From the NCBI GenBank assembly GCA_965235115.1, contig OZ249436.1:31498001-31562000 (forward strand): a stretch of 64,000 nucleotides of DNA. Reading direction: 5' to 3'. This document shows, piece after piece, positions 11,765 to 59,118 of this stretch. Origin of the DNA: Laetmonice hystrix. Taxonomy: Eukaryota. Below the pieces are notes generated by a model. The model searched no databases. It saw only the letters and a program-made list of their open reading frames with translations, and had not been told where the DNA came from. A program made the position numbers and the translations under genes. Numbering within the stretch: position 1 is the stretch's first letter; every line of letters starts with the position of its first letter.

Positions 11765-13365
11765 AACCGTTGTGTTCGGGCGGTAAGCTTTGTGGCTATC
11801 CATGCAGCTCATGGTCAGGATAGCCGTTCATAGTGAGTGAGGATCTCACGCCAGCTCGCTAGACGAATGTGGTCCTTTTAAAGCCATTGGTGGATGGGAA
11901 GTTTGCATTTCAACGCATCAACCATGATCTTTCTTCGAGGTTATAGGTTTATCCCAGCGAGGTGGTTTTCTATAGCTTTAAAACTGTCGTGTGATCAAAT
12001 TGAAGGTCGTGGATGGGCGACAAGGATCGGAAGTTATTCTGACGGCAGGCTGTGAAAATAGCTTTGGTCGTATAATAATACAAATACAAAACATCTGTAA
12101 TGATAGCGAACAGGTCATCAAATCCTTGTGGTACAATAGAACACGCATTAAAAAGCCGTTGCACGCCAACTGCGTCCCTCAGGCGTCAATAAAATAGTAT
12201 ATTCTATATACAAAGGGATTTGTTTATCTTTGTGTCAATATATATGACAGGGTCAGGGAAGAACACTAGTACGCTAAGAGGGAAGGTCGTTTTTTCTCTA
12301 AGCTGAGCATCGCCTTTGTGCTACATCTATTTTCCGTCGATTGAATTACCTTTTTAAAAAATCACTTCTGCACGCAACAACATTCCGTTCAGAATGTTAT
12401 GTGTCAGAACTTGCCTCGCCTCATGAACACAATACAAAAGAGACAGATACAGGTAAGTCTTTACAAGACGCATGCAAATGCCTTCATAATTCTAAATAAT
12501 GTAGGAACAGTTGAAGCGGAGAAATCCCCACCCATATAGTATAAATTTGCGCCATTATAAGCTATCTTTACCGCTACACGACTCCGTCGTGGAAATATTC
12601 TCACTGTTACCCAAGATATTATGTCCGAACGGCTAGTTAATATGTCCGATAGGAGATATGTAAAAATGTGTCCGGAGAAATTGATATGTCCGCCAGTTGA
12701 AACTATATATGATGAAACCCGTAACCCTAATATATGTCTTAACATTTTAATTTTAGTCCCCATATAGGCCTACTTCAGGCTGCATCATACGGCCATTTCG
12801 TCTGCTGCCGTGCTCTGTACCGTTCACTGCTCTGACACCCGACCACTGGAGAAAGTATGTGTTGTACGAATAATCAATGTGTAAGGCTGGCCGTATTCGA
12901 TGTTAGGCCAGCTGCCCCTGTGTGCAATCCACATTAATTGTTCTCATCAAGTATAACTGGCTTCTAAGTAAAAGATCCATAATAAGATCGATCTGGACGG
13001 CAAGTTCCGACAATAACAAAAAGAAAGAGTGTCGCAACAAACGTCGTAGAGGGTCGGACGGCGATATCTGATTAATGTCTGATCAGCCTGACCGCTAACA
13101 ACATTACTATAGACTGTAGATTCCTTCTCCGGCAACATGGCACTCGGGCATACACAAGACGGGGAATACGAAACTAATCGATGGTCACGAAACGATCCCG
13201 ACGCCCCATCAAAATGATCACACAATCATTATATACGGGTAGATGTCTATAGCAGTGTTACTGCCCCCCCCCCCCACACACACACACGTTTCATCTCGAA
13301 AGATGTGTGTATAGGGGGGAGGGTCCATTGTCCTGCTCGACCACCAAAGCTTCCTTTTTAGGGAA

Positions 13366-13462
13366 GTAGCGGTGGCCGAGTGGGCACGGGCGTTGATACC
13401 TTATGCTATGCGAATGGGTGCAGTAATCTTGGGGCCGGAGTTCCATTCCAATAGAGGGCTAT
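13366..13462 (+). mobile_element. tRNA(Ser/Leu)-derived SINE head or tRNA pseudogene
   Basis: 5' GTAGCGGTGGCCGAGTGG (A box, resembles tRNA-Ser/Leu 5' ends), degenerate B box GTTCCATTCC at 13440, 3' GCTAT able to pair with 5' GTAGC; no intact cloverleaf. Confidence 0.5.
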
Positions 13463-14916
13463 ACAACTTTTCTCTTTCCAGACATTCTCAAAGTAACTGG
13501 GTTACGCCTGATGCCCGTGGACTTAAAAAGAAAAATAGGCCCTCGATCCCCTGCCCTCCCATAATACACTCATCGCCAGGACCCATATGGATTTATCAAA
13601 CCGTGCGGCGTGCAATTATACCGTCAAAAAGCGTGCAATTATCAAAGCATAAAATGCACACGTGCATTAAAACCACCGGTATCTTATCAGGGTCCACGAT
13701 TTTTATGGCTCCGTTAATATTTAGACCACAGCGGGACACGAGTAGGCCTACATGTCGCCATTTTTTTTATTTATGTACAATAGATTCTATGAACCCAACA
13801 ATACATAGATCTAGTGTCGATAGTGGGTATATTGTCATGCTGCTGAAGTCGACAACAGTTCAGTGAAATTCACGTCAGCAAAGTCAACAGCTCCACTGAC
13901 GTCGAATTATAAACGGTTCGGGTGCCAACAAGACGGACGGCCGTCGAGAGCAGTGTCCACCTCCAGTGGCACGTTCATCTCGCTTTTATGGTTGTGTCAA
14001 GCGGCAATGGCCTCTTTTGGGAGCACGTCGGGTGTCCCAAACGTGCTTAGTCAACCCGGATGTGGTTTAAACACACTCATTTTTATCCATTAATAGTTAC
14101 GCTTTCACACATAAACACCCCTGGACAAATACGACCTAGATAGACGCTGGAATTCGCATTCATTCGCAGTCAAACAAGCCATAGGCTCACGCCGATTTAT
14201 TGTAGTCGAAGGAATAGAATGAGTTATCAAAAATATGACACCCAAAAAGGGCGGGTTCCAGGAAGGGGGGGGGCAAGGGTCTGGCTAACCCTCCTGGGAC
14301 CCCCCCCCCCTCCCTCCGAGCAACTTCCTTCGAAGAATCCCTCTCCAAATTCCTACACCCACTCCTGCCCAACGCCCTCCCCTCTTCCTCTTGTAATCGA
14401 AAGACTCCTGGAAATCCGTGTCTAAGTCCCTCGGCCCGTCGATCACGACTCTGGTTGCATCTGTCATCGTAACACATCAATAAAGACCATAATTAACAAC
14501 AGAGGGCGTGATGAACCAGAGATAGGAACGGCCATCCCCGTGGACATGACGTAATCATGCCTGAACACACGCCACGGGACTGGTGGCAAAGTATGGTTTC
14601 GTAATGCGCATGATACAGCCAATCGGGAAAGAGTGCATTTCACTGAGTCAGTGGTTCAGGACTACATGAACAATGCCTCCTCCAGGGTGAAGCAGTTTAA
14701 TTAGCATGAAGCGTCTGATAGGTCTACAAGGAAAAAACTATTTCAAGCGGACCCCCTCCCCCTCCCTCCCCCAAACTTGAGCTCGAGTTCCGCTCCTGGC
14801 TGGTTCCCTGCCTCATTGTGTCTTGATCCACCTATATGCCTACTCCTATGATTTGAATAGTCCCCAAGAGTACCGCTCTAGAGAAAAACGAACCACCCAC
14901 CCCTGGTTACGCCCCT

Positions 14917-15035
14917 GCTAGAGCCAAGTTCGGCTTGTCTTGACCGTATACATATAGGTTTCACACAGCAGTATAGGAACTATAGGCGTGCTAGAGCCAG
15001 GTTCGGCTTGTCCTCACCGTATAGGCTTCACAGCA
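14917..15035 (+). repeat. Left part (about 2 units) of the 66-bp minisatellite split by the LINE insertion
   Basis: Same unit as 19804-21233 (CTAGAGCCAGGTTCGGCTTGTCCTCACCGTATAGGCTTCACACAGCA...). Confidence 0.9.
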
Positions 15036-15278
15036 TGGAACCAAAACGCAAGCACCATTATGTTTGACCTCTTAAAGATCAAATTCAGCAGTGCCAGATT
15101 GAAGAAACTTCTTCTGGACACAGGTGATCAGCACCTCTATGAGGCAACTAAGACCCCACAATGGGGATGCGGCTTCAGCCTCGGTCAGGCGCAGCAGATC
15201 GTGCAGGATCAAGTGCAGGGCAATCTACTTGGGCGTCTACTTGAACGTATCCGTGATGATATCAAGACTGAAGGCTAA
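15036..15278 (+). pseudogene. C-terminal remnant of LINE ORF1 encoding a NADAR (YbiA/DUF1768-like) domain
   Basis: WNQNASTIMFDLLKIKF...LKKLLLDTGDQHLYEAT..QWGCG...QGNLLGRLLERIRDDI matches the NADAR pattern W..IM...L..KF...L..LLL.T....L.E....WG.G...G.N.LG.LL..R; the first residues of the ORF-track protein come from the satellite. Confidence 0.85.
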
Positions 15279-16347
15279 CCAATGGTAAACTGCACTGACA
15301 CTGAAGCCTAACAAACACTTGAACTGGACTGGATTGGACCCCCAACGATTAAGCCTAAACCGCAGGGTTTTTCAAATAAAAATCAATGGGACTTCAGCGT
15401 ATTTCTCTTGTTAAAAGTCAAACATTTCGTACAGTAACCTTACAAACATTGAACACTTTTTTCAACGTAATGAATTGAATTTATATACAGCTCTTCTCCT
15501 CAACATGTTATCTCAATAACATGTCACAACATTATTACCATTATGTCAACCAGCTGTGTGCGGGCTGCATGTGCTGCGAGCCGCAAGGTCACGGTATGTG
15601 GTGTTCCATGGCCAGAAGGGTCAGGTGAGGTGAAAGAGGTGCACACTCGGTACTTGAAAGTTTGTTTGCTGATCTAAGGGTGGTAGTGTGCGCCGGCGAA
15701 AATTTACCGTGTATGATACGGACTGAGATTGTGTGTGTGGGGTGTGGGGTGTGGGGCTGCTGTTCCTGGATATGTCCCAGTTGGAGGTGTCTTCAAAATT
15801 AATGGAGGTTGTAAGCAATAGTTTATGCTTTCTATAGCTTTGCAGCCGTTGGCATGCCATACATTTAGGGGGCGCTCACCTCAACTGTGGTGGTGAACGC
15901 GGATTAGTATCCATGTATAGGTAATAGGTGTTTCTTTTCTTTTGACTTCAATCACCGTGATGTAATGACCTTCTATGGAATAGTTCCAATGTAACAAGTA
16001 TTAATATAATTACTAATATATATATCAGCCACGGTGTCTGATCCTCCGACGTGTTGGTCAAACTTCCATATTATACTGACTGGAAGACCGTCAGACATTT
16101 GTTAACAATATGAACACATGTATATGCATCAAGAGGGAAAACTCGCGTTATACTGCTATCTTAATGTATAAACTTACCTTCCTATATTGTCAATGCCTGT
16201 TAAAACGATACTGTATCTACATATGCTATTGTACATGTACATTTTGTATTGTGAATCTGCTCTGGGCTAACGTGTCTAGAACGATCATTGATGTTCCGTC
16301 CGTCCTAACAAGGCAAGCTATTTGGAACTTTTTAACACTAAATCGCT

Positions 16348-19300
16348 ATGTTTGAATATAGCCAGGACATTGACCTACAGGAACTGCTAGAGTCTGAAAA
16401 TAATTCGGACTCCCCACTGTCCTTGATAAACTTGCAGTGTGAATACACAGAGATGGGAAATAATGCAAATTTCTTAAACAATGCAAATAACATGACTTAC
16501 ATGCATTTGAATATTCGTAGTTTGCCAGCTAAGTTTGATAGACTCAAAATGTTGATCAATAGTCTTGATGAAAGGGACTCCAGCCCAGATTGTATACTTT
16601 TGTGTGAGACATGGCTTAACAAGTTGAATTATAACTTGTTTCAAATATCAGGATATAATTTTGTTGATCATCACCGTGTTCAATCAAAGGGCGGTGGAGT
16701 AGCCATCTATATTAAAGATGGGATAAACTTTAAAATGCGTGATGACCTAATGGTCTTTGAAGAAGGTTCGTTTGAGTCCATCTTTATCGAAATTGTGAAC
16801 GGTAAGAAGAGTACAATTATTGGTGAAATGTATAGAGTTCCTGGCACAAATGAAAAGCATTTTCTTAATATTTATGAGGGTATCTTAAAGGAGTTTCAAA
16901 AAGAAAACAAAGGTATTGTCATTGGGACAGACCAAAATATTAATCTTCTAAATTCCCAAATTCATTCAAATACTGCCGCACTTATTGACCTTAATTTTGC
17001 GTATGGATTCATACCAACTATAACTAAACCTACCCGAATTACTCATAATACTGCTACTTTGATTGATAATATATATATATCATCAAAAAAGCCCCCAAAA
17101 ATTATCTCTAAAATCTTATTATCTGATATCTCAGACCATTTCCCAATTCTAGTTTATGAACTTAGCCAAAATAAGCCTACAAGATTGCCGCTCAAATTCA
17201 AAACTAGGGATACAAATAGCATCACACTAAATAAAATTAGATCTTACTTGAGACTCATCGACTGGAGTATTTTGGAAACCATGACGGTACACGAATCATT
17301 TGAATTACTAAATAGTATTATCCTAGAAGCTCTTGATCTGTTTGCACCTGAGAGAGAAGACTTAGTAACAATCCCGGCTAAACATATAATTAAGGAAAAA
17401 TGGATGACAAAAGGACTTTGTAAATCTTCATCTACTAACCATAAATTATATGTAAGAAGTTTAGGCAAACCTAAACATGATCCCATATACCTTAGGTATG
17501 TCGCTTACCGAAATCTATTTAATAAACTCAAGAGAAGGGCCAAGCAATCGTTTTATTCCAAGCAGCTAAACCTATTTAAAAATGATATTTCCAAAACATG
17601 GCGAATAATAAAAACCCTAACTGGCAAAGTAAACGACAAAACTTCACTTCCAGATGAATTTACACATGCAGGTATCAATCTAAATGACGCAAAACAGATC
17701 AGTAATGGTTTCTGTAACTATTTTACAAATGTAGGAAACAATTGTTCAAACAAAATTCTTTCATCTAGATATAATTACCAGCACTACTTAAAAACTAGTT
17801 ATGCAAATTCTATGTTCTTATCGCCAACTGATCCTGAAGAGGTAAAAAAAATCATTAATGAAATCAAGCCAAAAGCAAGCGCTGGCTGGGACAATATAGA
17901 TACCAAGTTACTTAAGAGTTTATCAATAGAAATTTCCGCACCCCTGTCAAATATCATCAATAAATCATTCGATCAGGGAGTAGTCCCCGATTGCTTAAAA
18001 GTAGCCAAAATAATACCTATATATAAATCTAAGGATAACCAACTCTTTTCTAACTATAGGCCCATATCATTACTCCCATCAATCTCTAAAGTCCTTGAAA
18101 AGGTTATGCATCATAAAGTTTATAATTTTCTAACTTCTCAAAATATCCTATTTGAAAGCCAATATGGTTTCCGAAAAAAACATTCAACTAATCAAGCTAT
18201 AATCGAACTTATTACAAAAATATATCAAGCCTTTGATAATAATAATTACACTGCTGCCGTTTTTTTAGATCTGTCAAAAGCTTTTGATACCATAGATCAC
18301 ACGATCCTGGTAAATAAATTAAAACACTACGGTATTAGAGGTAAACCTCTACAATGGTTTACAAGTTATTTAACTGGGAGGAAGCAGTTTGTGGACTATA
18401 AAGGCACAAGGTCCGATGTCCTAGACATAACATGTGGTGTCCCACAAGGCTCTGTTCTGGGACCCTTGTTATTCATTTTGTATACAAATGACTTACCTGC
18501 ATGCCTTAAATATTCTAGTGGAATTCTGTTCGCTGATGATACCAGCGTCAATTACACAAATAAGAACCTGCAAACTTTATTAGAAAATATTAATAGCGAT
18601 ATGGCTGTCCTAGATGACTGGTTTAAGGCAAATAGATTATCCCTAAATGTCTCGAAATCAAATTATATCATTTTTAGACCCACTTATAAAGTACTTCCGG
18701 ATCTTGAATTAGATATACAAATTGGACCAGATAAGATCGAACGTCAATCCACTGTTAAATTCCTTGGAATGTTTATTGACGAAAATTTAAAATGGTCTGA
18801 CCAGGTCAAGCACATTACACAAAAAATGGCCAAATCACTATATGTAATAAACTCTCTGAAAAATATTTTGCCCAAAAAGGAACTTAAAACCTTATATTAT
18901 ACAATAATTTACCCATATCTAACTAACGGAATAGAATTATGGGGGTCGACTCAGAAAGGTGTCCTAAACAAAATTATCACTATGCAGAAAAAGGTTGTAC
19001 GTTGTATAGGACGGGTGAAATATAATGACAGTACTATTCCCATTTTCAGAAAATTGCACTTCCTCCAGGTCAAGGATATCTATGAACTTCATATTCTCAA
19101 ATTTATGTATGCATATATCCATAATGATGTACCCTCGCCTATCACTAGAATGTTTACTAGAAATTTTGAGTTTCATAACTACGACACTAGACAAAACACT
19201 GATCCACGTATTCAGAAGAGACATACTATGATGGGCGCAAAGAGCATTGTTCACCGAGGCCCATTATTATGGTCTAGATTACCTCCTGACTTAAAAAACA

Positions 19301-19359
19301 AACCCTCTAAAAAGTCATTTGTAAAGAGTTATAAAAAGCATGTACTAAATAATTATTGA
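16348..19359 (+). CDS. LINE ORF2: apurinic-type endonuclease + reverse transcriptase (1003 aa, uninterrupted)
   Basis: APE motifs HLNIRSL, LCETWL, TxIDNIY, SDHFPI; RT motifs NYRPISLL, QYGFR, FLDLSKAFD, GVPQGSVLGPLLF, FADDT, KFLG; C-terminal HNYDTRQ..LWSRLP. Confidence 0.96.
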   Translation: MFEYSQDIDLQELLESENNSDSPLSLINLQCEYTEMGNNANFLNNANNMTYMHLNIRSLPAKFDRLKMLINSLDERDSSPDCILLCETWLNKLNYNLFQISGYNFVDHHRVQSKGGGVAIYIKDGINFKMRDDLMVFEEGSFESIFIEIVNGKKSTIIGEMYRVPGTNEKHFLNIYEGILKEFQKENKGIVIGTDQNINLLNSQIHSNTAALIDLNFAYGFIPTITKPTRITHNTATLIDNIYISSKKPPKIISKILLSDISDHFPILVYELSQNKPTRLPLKFKTRDTNSITLNKIRSYLRLIDWSILETMTVHESFELLNSIILEALDLFAPEREDLVTIPAKHIIKEKWMTKGLCKSSSTNHKLYVRSLGKPKHDPIYLRYVAYRNLFNKLKRRAKQSFYSKQLNLFKNDISKTWRIIKTLTGKVNDKTSLPDEFTHAGINLNDAKQISNGFCNYFTNVGNNCSNKILSSRYNYQHYLKTSYANSMFLSPTDPEEVKKIINEIKPKASAGWDNIDTKLLKSLSIEISAPLSNIINKSFDQGVVPDCLKVAKIIPIYKSKDNQLFSNYRPISLLPSISKVLEKVMHHKVYNFLTSQNILFESQYGFRKKHSTNQAIIELITKIYQAFDNNNYTAAVFLDLSKAFDTIDHTILVNKLKHYGIRGKPLQWFTSYLTGRKQFVDYKGTRSDVLDITCGVPQGSVLGPLLFILYTNDLPACLKYSSGILFADDTSVNYTNKNLQTLLENINSDMAVLDDWFKANRLSLNVSKSNYIIFRPTYKVLPDLELDIQIGPDKIERQSTVKFLGMFIDENLKWSDQVKHITQKMAKSLYVINSLKNILPKKELKTLYYTIIYPYLTNGIELWGSTQKGVLNKIITMQKKVVRCIGRVKYNDSTIPIFRKLHFLQVKDIYELHILKFMYAYIHNDVPSPITRMFTRNFEFHNYDTRQNTDPRIQKRHTMMGAKSIVHRGPLLWSRLPPDLKNKPSKKSFVKSYKKHVLNNY

Positions 19360-19803
19360 TTCTTTTTGGTTTAACTTAATATAATTGAGTTATCTATGTG
19401 TATAAGCAGTATTCTAAACGATTTTCCCCTATCTATTGTATCAAATGAATGTAACCGTCCGCTTATAAATCCTATCTAGTTGTATCGGCAAATTAGTTAG
19501 CCTAAGGCAACATCCGCCCAGGTACTGAATTAATCAAAATAGACTCTCATTTGTTACTTCTTAGAATTGTGTACCTGGATTTACAGTCTATATTGACTCA
19601 GGGTGTTTTGCCTTGACCCACCCAGAGCTATTTTTTGTCACTGTATTATTTATGATTCCTGAGTCACTGGGACTCACTTATATCACTGCATATTACTTCG
19701 CCACATGAGTGTATTTACCACAGTACTCAAGGTTTCTTTTTGCGAAAATACCTTCCTGTAACTCTCCTTGGGTCTAAAATAAACATACATACATACATAC
19801 ATA

Positions 19804-21233
19804 CACAGCAGTATAGGAACTATAGGCGTGCTAGAGCCAGGTTCGGCTTGTCCTCACCGTATAGACTATAGGCTTCACACAGCATATAGCAACTATAGGC
19901 GTGCTAGAGCCAGGTTCGGCTTGTCCTCACCGTGTATAGGCTTCACACAGCATATAGCAACTATAGGCGTGCTAGAGCCAGGTTCGGCTTGTCCTCACCG
20001 TAGGCTTCACACAGCAGTATAGGAACTATAGGCGTGCTAGAGCCAAGTTCGGCTTGTCCTCACCGTATAGGCTTCACACAGCATATAGCAACTATAGGCG
20101 TGCTAGAGCCAGGTTCGGCTTGTCCTCACCGTATAGGCTTCACACAGCATATAGCAACTATAGGCGTGCTAGAGCCAAGTTCGGCTTGTCCTCACCGTAT
20201 AGGCTTCACACAGCATATAGCAACTATAGGCGTGCTAGAGCCAGGTTCGGCTTGTCCTCACCGTATGGCTTCACACAACAGTATAGGAACTATAGGCGTG
20301 CTAGAGACAAGTTCGGCTTGTCCTCACCGTATGGCTTCACACAACAGTATAGGAACTATAGGCGTGCTAGAGCCAAGTTCGGCTTGTCCTCACCGTATGG
20401 CTTCACACAGCAGTATAGGAACTATAGGCGTGCTAGAGCCAAGTTCGGCTTGTCCTCACCGTAGGCTTCACACAACAGTATAGGAACTATAGGCGTGCTA
20501 GAGCCAGGTTCGGCTTGTCCTCACCGTATGGCTTCACACAACAGTATAGGAACTATAGGCGTGCTAGAGCCAAGTTCGGCTTGTCCTCACCGTAGGCTTC
20601 ACACAGCAGTATAGGAACTATAGGCGTGCTAGAGCCAGGTTCGGCTTGTCCTCACCGTATAGGCTTCACACAGCATATAGCAACTATAGGCGTGCTAGAG
20701 CCAGGTTCGGCTTGTCCTCACCGTATGGCTTCACACAACAGTATAGGAACTATAGGCGTGCTAGAGACAAGTTCGGCTTGTCCTCACCGTATGGCTTCAC
20801 ACAACAGTATAGGAACTATAGGCGTGCTAGAGCCAAGTTCGGCTTGTCCTCACCGTATGGCTTCACACAACAGTATAGGAACTATAAGCGTGCTAGAGAC
20901 AAGTTCGGCTTGTCCTCACCGTATAGGCTTCACACAGCATATAGCAACTATAGGCGTGCTAGAGCCAGGTTCGGCTTGTCCTCACCGTAGGCCCTATATA
21001 GGCTTCACACAGCATATAGCAAATATAGGCGTGCTAGAGCCAGGTTCGGCTTGTCCTCACCGTAGGCCCTATATAGGCTTCACACAGCATATAGCAACTA
21101 TAGGCGTGCTAGAGCCAGGTTCGGCTTGTCCTCACCGTATATAGGCTTCACACAGCATATAGCAACTATAGGCGTGCTAGAGCCAGGTTCGGCTTGTCCT
21201 CACCGTAGGCTTCACACAGCAGTATAGGAACTA
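19804..21233 (+). repeat. 66-bp minisatellite, about 21-22 units with two interleaved variants
   Basis: Unit CTATAGGCGTGCTAGAGCCAGGTTCGGCTTGTCCTCACCGTATAGGCTTCACACAGCATATAGCAA; period 66 (e.g. 20041 to 20107); 22-aa repeats in the ORF track. Confidence 0.97.
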
Positions 21234-41218: not shown

Positions 41219-56311
<15,093 letters not shown>

Positions 56312-58003: not shown

Positions 58004-58437
58004 CTCGATGATCTCGTAGTTCATTTGCCTCAACCTCTCAGAAGTTCGTTCACCACGGCATACTGGAGCTTTTATAGTTAGTTATTACAAGGGTTATAGG
58101 CAGGCAAGTTAAACTCTCACCGGGACGGGGAGGGAAGGGAAGGAGCGGGCCGGGCCGGGACGTCCCAGCACCCGTTCGAAGGGTTGGGCGTCAGGGCGAA
58201 AGCGGGGCCTGGATTGGTCCGGTGGAGTGGGGCAGGGGCAGGCCGGTTGTCTGCGGGTGGGTGGCTGCAATAAATATATAAATATAAACAATAAATATAT
58301 TAATTTACATTAAAAAATAATACTTCCTACTAAAGCTGACATGGAGTTCTACAAAACTGTAATGTGACTGTACAGTGAGCAAGGGATATTTTGAATATAT
58401 TTTTTTCTATGTCTACTTATTCAGTTCATGAAAAGGA

Positions 58438-59118
58438 ATGAAGATGCCGATGACCATGATTGATGATCCAAATACAGCATCAACTCAGCTTAGACCGTTG
58501 TCCAGTGAGATGAGCTTACTGAGTCGTCCGGATGGATCTGCTCAGTTCAACCATGGTGACACATCTGTGCTAGCTGCCGTATATGGGCCTGCAGAAGTCA
58601 AGATCAGCAAGGAGAAACTAGATGGAGCCACGGTAGAGATTGTCTACAAACCCAAAGTTGGCCTCCCTGGGTGTGCAGACAGAGTGAAGGAGAAACTAAT
58701 CTGTGATACATGCGAAGCGGCCATCTTGGCCAGCCTCCACCCCCGGACAGCCATCTTGGTGGTGGTACAACAGATGCAAGACTCTGGTGCATTTGTTGCT
58801 TGTGCCATCAATGCTGCTTGTTTGTCCCTACTTGATGCAGCACTACCATTACGGTACACATTTGCAGCAGTTGCCTGTGTCATAGACTCCGAAGGAGAAA
58901 TTATTGTGGATCCAACACTTAAGCAGGAAGCTGAATCCACTGCAAACATGACATTTGTTTTTGAGAGTAACAGCCAGGGTGTTGTAACAGCACTATGTGA
59001 GGGAAGTTATAGTAGTGAACAGTACCAGAAGTGCCTGGTGCATTGTAAACGCACAGCCACACAAATATGGGACTTCTATAGAGCTGCTGTAAAACGCAAG
59101 GTGTTGAAAGCCACTTGA
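58438..59118 (+). CDS. EXOSC5: Exosome complex component RRP46 (RNase PH-like core subunit), single coding exon, 226 aa
   Basis: LRPLSSEMSLLSRPDGSAQF.HGDTSVLAAVYGPAEVK..ATVEIVYKPKVG..HPRTAI..QDSG..ACAINAACLSLLDA..DPT.KQE; acceptor TTATTCAG just upstream (58424); AATAAA at about 59328. Confidence 0.93.
   Translation: MKMPMTMIDDPNTASTQLRPLSSEMSLLSRPDGSAQFNHGDTSVLAAVYGPAEVKISKEKLDGATVEIVYKPKVGLPGCADRVKEKLICDTCEAAILASLHPRTAILVVVQQMQDSGAFVACAINAACLSLLDAALPLRYTFAAVACVIDSEGEIIVDPTLKQEAESTANMTFVFESNSQGVVTALCEGSYSSEQYQKCLVHCKRTATQIWDFYRAAVKRKVLKAT

Follow-up and report, generated by a model that had tools for sequence, protein, structure and literature searches.

Fusions of the NADAR domain with retroelement proteins have already been described. 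A Repbase query revealed NADAR in the first open reading frame (ORF1) of several Tx1 families of long interspersed nuclear elements (LINEs) of the oyster Crassostrea gigas, so that the fusion with LINE ORF1 as such is known in print, and NADAR was also reported at the N-terminus of Pol in Gypsy lineage IV of Ectocarpus (PMC12477816). Shuffling of ORF1 between lineages has been proposed as well (PMC4120745). As for the possible substrate, endogenous ADP-ribosylation of guanine or cytosine has not been found in eukaryotes, according to PMC12945103.

In this work, a stretch of 64,000 nucleotides of the Laetmonice hystrix genome (contig OZ249436.1, positions 31,498,001 to 31,562,000 of the forward strand), hereafter the window, was analyzed. 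It contains a young, 5'-truncated LINE that interrupts a satellite with a 66-bp unit. In line with the preliminary description of this stretch, a NADAR domain ending ORF1 is a family trait of this CR1-type LINE, on which the Pfam match, the sister copies, the full ORF1 and the structure model agree. The CR1-type carriers, the genome scale, the intact active site and the direct evidence of movement between distant LINE groups are new. The literature search found no paper that describes NADAR in CR1-group ORF1s or tests it there; Repbase reports, subscription journals or de Souza and Aravind 2012 may hold one.

NADAR domain and architecture of ORF1

The plus-strand frame with a NADAR signature that was noticed earlier is present at 15036–15278, with its stop codon at 15276–15278. 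According to the Pfam analysis, residues 1–76 of the translation of 15036–15275 match positions 85–162 of the 163 positions of the NADAR family PF08719 with 48.7 bits (E 1.4e-12; curated cut-off 35.1 bits). The same half of the domain matches the structure of the P. nicotianae NADAR (8bau, E 6.5e-5), and a chance match is rejected by the Pfam score and the structure alignment. The frame represents the 3' end of ORF1 and corresponds to residues 340–419 of the unbroken 419-aa ORF1 (P0002) of the sister copy C2, which was used as a stand-in for the full-length ORF1 of the window family; it includes W340, E375 and W382. Thus, the frame had been correctly read as a NADAR C-terminus and the domain is real, but the window copy holds only half of it and has no ORF1 start, because the 5' truncation falls inside the domain. 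Therefore, the window copy cannot make the enzyme.

All four other copies found to reach as far 5' as the window element carry the NADAR segment (C2, C11 and C10 at 97–99%, C5 at 88%), and C2 yields the intact ORF1, whereas the frame is shifted in C11 and C10. Three copies have the same 5' end but different flanking sequences; the length of C2 and C11 is ~5.9 kb. The earlier alternative of a one-off capture, or a template switch of a host NADAR mRNA, is rejected by these four copies and by the 741 NADAR candidates found in the genome.

In the full ORF1, PF08719 covers residues 275–415 with 79.1 bits and is the sole Pfam family above its cut-off. [quoted passage not shown] Residues 77–263 of the model align with human L1 ORF1p (2ykp; Z 10.4, root-mean-square deviation (rmsd) 3.7, 176 residues aligned), and residues 257–419 align with 8bau (Z 19.6, rmsd 2.4, 161 residues aligned) and with E. 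coli YbiA (2b3w; Z 16.4). The YbiA fold of the last domain was also detected by Foldseek (E 5e-9). From these matches it follows that the order in ORF1 is coiled coil, RRM, CTD and NADAR; as modelled, the protein is a type II (L1-type) ORF1p whose C-terminus is extended by a NADAR of the YbiA family. Such a protein would be expected to form trimers and to act as an RNA chaperone. The glutamate in the last strand that marks the YbiA family (E125 of the P. nicotianae NADAR) is present as E375, and the equivalents of E43 and K50 are E298 and R305.

ORF2 occupies positions 16342–19359 of the plus strand (1005 open codons, first ATG at 16348) and encodes an apurinic/apyrimidinic (AP) endonuclease and a reverse transcriptase (RT). 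It lacks zf-RVT, and its comparison with human L1 ORF2p gave nothing at E ≤ 1e-5, which sets it apart from the L1/Tx1 group, where ORF2 is ~1250 aa long, carries zf-RVT and resembles L1 ORF2p over its full length. The combination of AP endonuclease and RT, the length of about 1000 aa, the lack of a C-terminal zinc knuckle and the tandem-repeat 3' tail are traits of the CR1 group. The element is accordingly classed as CR1-type, in a comparison of its RT that covers only the RTs of this genome. The RT tree contains 48 rows, all from this genome: 8 belong to the L1 group, 28 group with the window element, and 12 represent other non-L1 lineages. The L1-group rows have ORF2s of ~1240 aa, and zf-RVT was detected in all four that were scanned, in two of them above the cut-off; the NADAR-bearing L1-group element L073 matches human L1 ORF2p with 367 bits. 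Some ORF2s start with a PHD-like finger, seen as a weak Pfam match in L109 and as a Cys/His pattern in L068.

Distribution and exchange of the ORF1 cassette

The PF08719 search of the genome (627 Mb in 35 contigs) gave 741 candidates, and all 150 that were scored exceeded the cut-off. For the Macro domain, taken for comparison, 9 candidates were found, i.e., it shows no such expansion. Sixty loci were picked from the 150 scored rows, favouring varied scores and long frames, so that the sample leans to intact ORF1s. A LINE ORF2 lies downstream of NADAR in 53 of these loci (52 by a same-strand match to the window ORF2 and one by an RT profile). Two further loci have NADAR in a Gypsy-type Pol, between the protease and RT, and five have no RT in the examined stretch, although copies of their ORF1 types are RT-linked elsewhere. 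Thus, NADAR occurs with L1-group, CR1-type and Gypsy enzymes. In intact ORF1s it is always in frame. The 58 domains that could be cut out (57 of the 60 loci plus the window family; in three loci a motif or a stop broke the cutting rule) form 47 variants at 80% identity. In a search with the Transposase_22 family, none of 40 candidates passed, and this does not bear on how many type II ORF1s lack NADAR.

The Gypsy-type Pol frames are located at L115:1948–6927 (plus strand, 1660 codons) and L122:2607–7553 (minus strand, 1649 codons). The NADAR of this Pol scores 103.9 bits and has histidine at the position of E125; these frames are an animal parallel to the Ectocarpus Gypsy. No pair of long terminal repeats was found within 9.5 kb around the Gypsy locus.

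Outside this genome, public sequences were compared through the representatives of clusters formed at 50% identity; of the top 150 representatives, 145 contain RRM-CTD and NADAR together, and the catalytic acids and lysine are kept in public relatives too. Among the look-alikes in the atlas, some clusters are labelled Annelida on very few records, and one named relative, which has an ORF1-like piece upstream, comes from the annelid Paralvinella palmiformis. Homolog searches with single sequences were weak, with two matches each, and a cluster look-up of ten proteins yielded a name for none of them. Five public proteins (P0005, P0006, P0026, P0030 and P0150) contain 3 to 7 tandem NADARs and no RRM-CTD. 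The NADAR tree (81 rows) has no starred deep branch and leaves the Gypsy row unplaced; in it, the hypothesis that the NADARs carried by elements arose once is neither rejected nor demonstrated (p-value of the approximately unbiased test, p-AU, 0.48).

The groups defined by the RT tree were tested on a quick ORF1 tree (36 rows). A single clade of L1-group ORF1s is rejected (p-AU 3e-45), as is one formed by the ORF1s that accompany the RT clade of the window element (p-AU 8e-65). The CR1-type L070 and the L1-group L073 have RTs that are 26% identical, whereas their NADARs and RRM-CTDs are 60% and 61% identical, and both pairings of ORF1 and ORF2 recur in further copies. Conversely, L074 and L085 are 95–96% identical in ORF2 DNA and 42% identical in NADAR, and both forms are multi-copy; their similarity breaks in the spacer ~150 bases before ORF2, near L085:2849. 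This is a very recent swap of ORF1. In the RT tree, the closest neighbour of the window element (L065, 65%) is accompanied by a NADAR that is only 30% identical. Since the identities of RRM-CTD and NADAR mostly move together, the whole ORF1 is the exchanged unit, and these comparisons show that it has moved between L1-group and CR1-type ORF2s. In this genome, dozens of element families retain a NADAR-tipped ORF1 cassette and exchange it among themselves. The exchange of ORF1 is unusually clear here, since near-identical ORF2s stand under two different ORF1s and ORF2s of the L1 group and of the CR1 type carry related ORF1s.

Active site, selection and possible role of the domain

The active-site numbering of PMC11543638 (8bau) was mapped by alignment onto the 58 domains. 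E43 and W89 are kept in all of them, W133 in 56 and D130 in 54; the position of K50 holds lysine in 52 domains and arginine in 4, and that of E125 glutamate in 50 and histidine in 7. The window family keeps E298, R305, W340, E375 and W382. Replacement of the phosphate-binding lysine by arginine leaves in vitro activity in the E. coli C7 NADAR (PMC11543638). Selection was assessed in 16 between-family pairs, chosen as near neighbours. The proportion of synonymous differences (pS) is 0.72–0.88, at or near saturation, in all 16, and the proportion of nonsynonymous differences (pN) in NADAR is 0.14–0.37, similar to that of RRM-CTD and below that of the coiled coil. Five young within-family pairs were noisy (0.16–0.83). 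These values show that the domain is under purifying selection.

These results bear directly on whether the domain is a passenger, i.e., a NADAR gene taken up a single time from a host or a bacterium and then carried without function. The p-AU of 0.48 leaves room for the single capture, and a sister family without ORF1 (see below) has still multiplied. However, purifying selection acts in all 16 between-family pairs, the active site is near invariant at ~30–40% overall domain identity, and the domain never leaves the frame of an intact ORF1, so that this explanation is largely refuted and highly improbable.

The ADP-ribose-processing module suggested in the preliminary description is plausible, and the kept catalytic residues and purifying selection strengthen it. 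Tentatively, and at slightly less than an even chance, we favour the prediction that the NADAR is an active ADP-ribosyl-base hydrolase carried on the ribonucleoprotein as an accessory counter-defence. Trimers of ORF1p would coat the element RNA and thus display many NADAR domains on the template, and ORF1p would also set them beside the single-stranded DNA of target-primed reverse transcription; the coating would in this way bring the hydrolase both to the template and to the single-stranded DNA of the insertion site. There, the domain would release ADP-ribose from guanine or cytosine by cleaving the N-glycosidic bond; such adducts would stall RT. The opposed transferase may belong to the host or to a symbiont. 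Such a cassette would be accessory: its benefit would suffice for unrelated ORF2 lineages to retain and exchange it, while some families would do without it. In vitro, guanine-linked ADP-ribose is removed by each of the four NADAR subtypes that were tested, the His type among them (PMC11125620), and YbiA-type NADARs and a sponge NADAR act on cytidine-linked ADP-ribose too, in both DNA and RNA (PMC12945103). The NADARs of animal RNA viruses have been proposed to counter ADP-ribosylation by the host (PMC9503650).

Several observations weigh against the counter-defence role. The window family is on a long branch and has no equivalents of D130 and R93, which contact the pyrophosphate in 8bau. Genome searches for the Scabin-like and DarT families found no base-modifying transferase; the controls were silent as well, and therefore absence of the transferase is not shown. 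PARP-type matches are few (14 in the genome). In vitro activity on guanine-linked ADP-ribose did not predict protection of cells for YbiA and phage NADARs, and NADARs have other roles, namely, with riboflavin intermediates and in the trans-splicing factor SNA-3 (PMC11125620). In addition, a young sister family (L126, L128, L129 and L131; copies ~98% alike, ORF2 ~66% identical to that of the window element) has no ORF1, and hence the cassette is not required. This family was recognized in a set of 20 loci selected for DNA similarity to the window ORF2 or spacer. One of these loci carries an upstream RRM-CTD and NADAR, four, which make up the family, reach the ORF2 start without ORF1, and 15 are truncated or decayed and therefore uninformative. 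Two of its copies share 1.9 kb of 5' sequence with no frame longer than 83 codons. The 5' region of these four loci contains short tandem repeats, like the ORF1-minus variants of PMC13343379.

The conserved active site would also fit an N-glycosidase with another substrate. It might clear a small derivative of ADP-ribose, which either arises as a by-product when RNA ends are repaired or serves as an immune signal, or it might help to process the RNA intermediate. RNA processing was suggested in PMC12477816, PMC9503650 ties NADARs to RNA repair and to low-molecular-weight ADP-ribose derivatives, and no base-modifying transferase was found, though the controls of that search are uninformative. 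Nevertheless, fusion to an RNA-coating protein places the domain on RNA, which is unneeded for scavenging diffusible molecules, and the sole macromolecular activity reported for the fold in the cited texts is the removal of base-linked ADP-ribose (PMC12945103, PMC11543638, PMC11125620). We consider another substrate rather unlikely.

The domain may also bind without cutting, reading ADP-ribose or RNA to place the ribonucleoprotein or to bring factors for processing or translation to the long bicistronic RNA. NADAR domains may act so in the nematode SNA-3 (PMC11125620), the inter-ORF spacers are long (133–1878 bases in the 14 elements examined), many of the conserved residues would persist in a pocket that only binds, and two phosphate contacts are gone in the window family. 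On the other hand, the 47 variants and the public relatives retain the two catalytic acids together with the catalytic lysine, and the main substitution of E125 is histidine, the residue of active phage NADARs (PMC11543638, PMC11125620). The same domain inside a Gypsy Pol also suits a purely structural role less well. Binding alone seems unlikely.

Returning to the proposed hydrolase, the keeping of the cassette across families hints at an ADP-ribose defence against retroelements. Some invertebrates might silence retroelements by ADP-ribosylating bases of their RNA or complementary DNA, with LINEs of two distant groups and a Gypsy lineage answering by a mobile NADAR eraser that passes freely between them, as a eukaryotic counterpart of the arms race between DarT1 and phage NADARs; this scenario is speculative and, taken as a whole, doubtful. 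A selected putative eraser that sits on ORF1p in dozens of retrotransposon families suggests a place to look for base ADP-ribosylation, and the ORF1 NADARs are small, testable enzymes.

Insertion site, neighbouring sequences and comparison with known systems

The satellite boundaries described earlier are borne out, as the 66-bp satellite is present on both sides of the element. The upstream remnant (~14917–15035, plus strand) is recognized by its sequence and satellite unit and ends in a probable 7-bp target-site duplication (15029–15035); the second copy of this word (19804–19810) starts the downstream array of ~20 units (19804–21233, plus strand). At the 5' junction, the element and the satellite share a microhomology of 5–6 bp that overlaps the probable duplication, positions 15031–15035 being also element sequence, and the sister copies align to the window element from 15031 onward. 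A 7-bp word repeated at the two ends, with microhomology at the 5' junction, is as expected for a 5'-truncated insertion. The inter-ORF spacer of ~1.07 kb (15279–16347, plus strand) has no frame longer than 91 codons and is 99% identical in the sister copies. The 3' untranslated region (19360–19803, plus strand) contains a polyadenylation hexamer at 19778–19783 and then a 4-bp tandem-repeat tail, with the same end in the C11 and C2 copies.

A spacer segment at ~15375–15512 has many matches of 75–88% elsewhere in the genome that do not adjoin NADAR or ORF2, and it may be a short dispersed repeat that the spacer has taken along. A tie of this segment to the cassette was rejected, as none of 19 loci (L012–L030) has a NADAR or RRM-CTD match; the 60 NADAR loci contain no match to the segment. 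Positions 13287–13535 of the window represent a dispersed or tandem repeat, with a 91% match to the sequence flanking C11, a copy in which the 5' flank is similar to the 3' flank. As for neighbouring genes, the reading frames at 41219–54516 (minus strand) are, judging by their motifs, probable exons of a DDX5/DDX17-like RNA helicase gene, and the intronless frame of 228 codons at 58432–59118 (plus strand) resembles the exosome subunit Rrp46/EXOSC5.

Compared with the described systems, the elements analyzed here share with oyster Tx1 and Ectocarpus Gypsy the YbiA-family NADAR in LINE ORF1 and in Gypsy Pol, and fusions in L1-group elements are present here too. The window element, unlike oyster Tx1, is not of the L1/Tx1 group, having neither zf-RVT nor a match to L1 ORF2p. 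The oyster report is a database match (PMC12477816), to which the ORF1 architecture, the active-site residues, selection, copy scale and inter-group exchange are added here. In the Gypsy elements, NADAR lies between the protease and RT, whereas in Ectocarpus it is at the N-terminus of Pol (PMC12477816).

The type II ORF1p of CR1, L2 and L1 elements (PMC4120745; 2yko/2ykp) has the coiled coil, RRM and CTD in the same order. The difference is the extra C-terminal NADAR, of which the available texts of PMC4120745 and of the 2026 survey of the vertebrate CR1 group (PMC13343379) make no mention. Esterase-type ORF1s of CR1, L2 and RTE elements (PMC13343379) similarly have an accessory domain with an enzyme fold that is gained, lost and apparently dispensable, but its fold and chemistry are unrelated to those of NADAR.

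YbiA, 8bau and the antitoxins of DarT1-NADAR systems (PMC11543638, PMC11125620) share with the ORF1 domain the fold and the catalytic Glu, Lys and Glu; here, the domain is fused to a retrotransposon chaperone and has no linked transferase, and the window family differs from 8bau by the absent equivalents of D130 and R93. DarT1-linked NADARs have Asp where Glu is found here, and neither ORF1 nor ORF2 contains a transferase domain, which separates these elements from DarT1-NADAR systems. Further parallels are the NADARs of invertebrate nidoviruses and other viruses (PMC9503650), which are stand-alone ADP-ribose erasers without a writer in a selfish element, and the orphan antitoxins of T4-like phages (PMC11825919), likewise an eraser without a writer in a selfish element, whereas the carrier described here is a retrotransposon.

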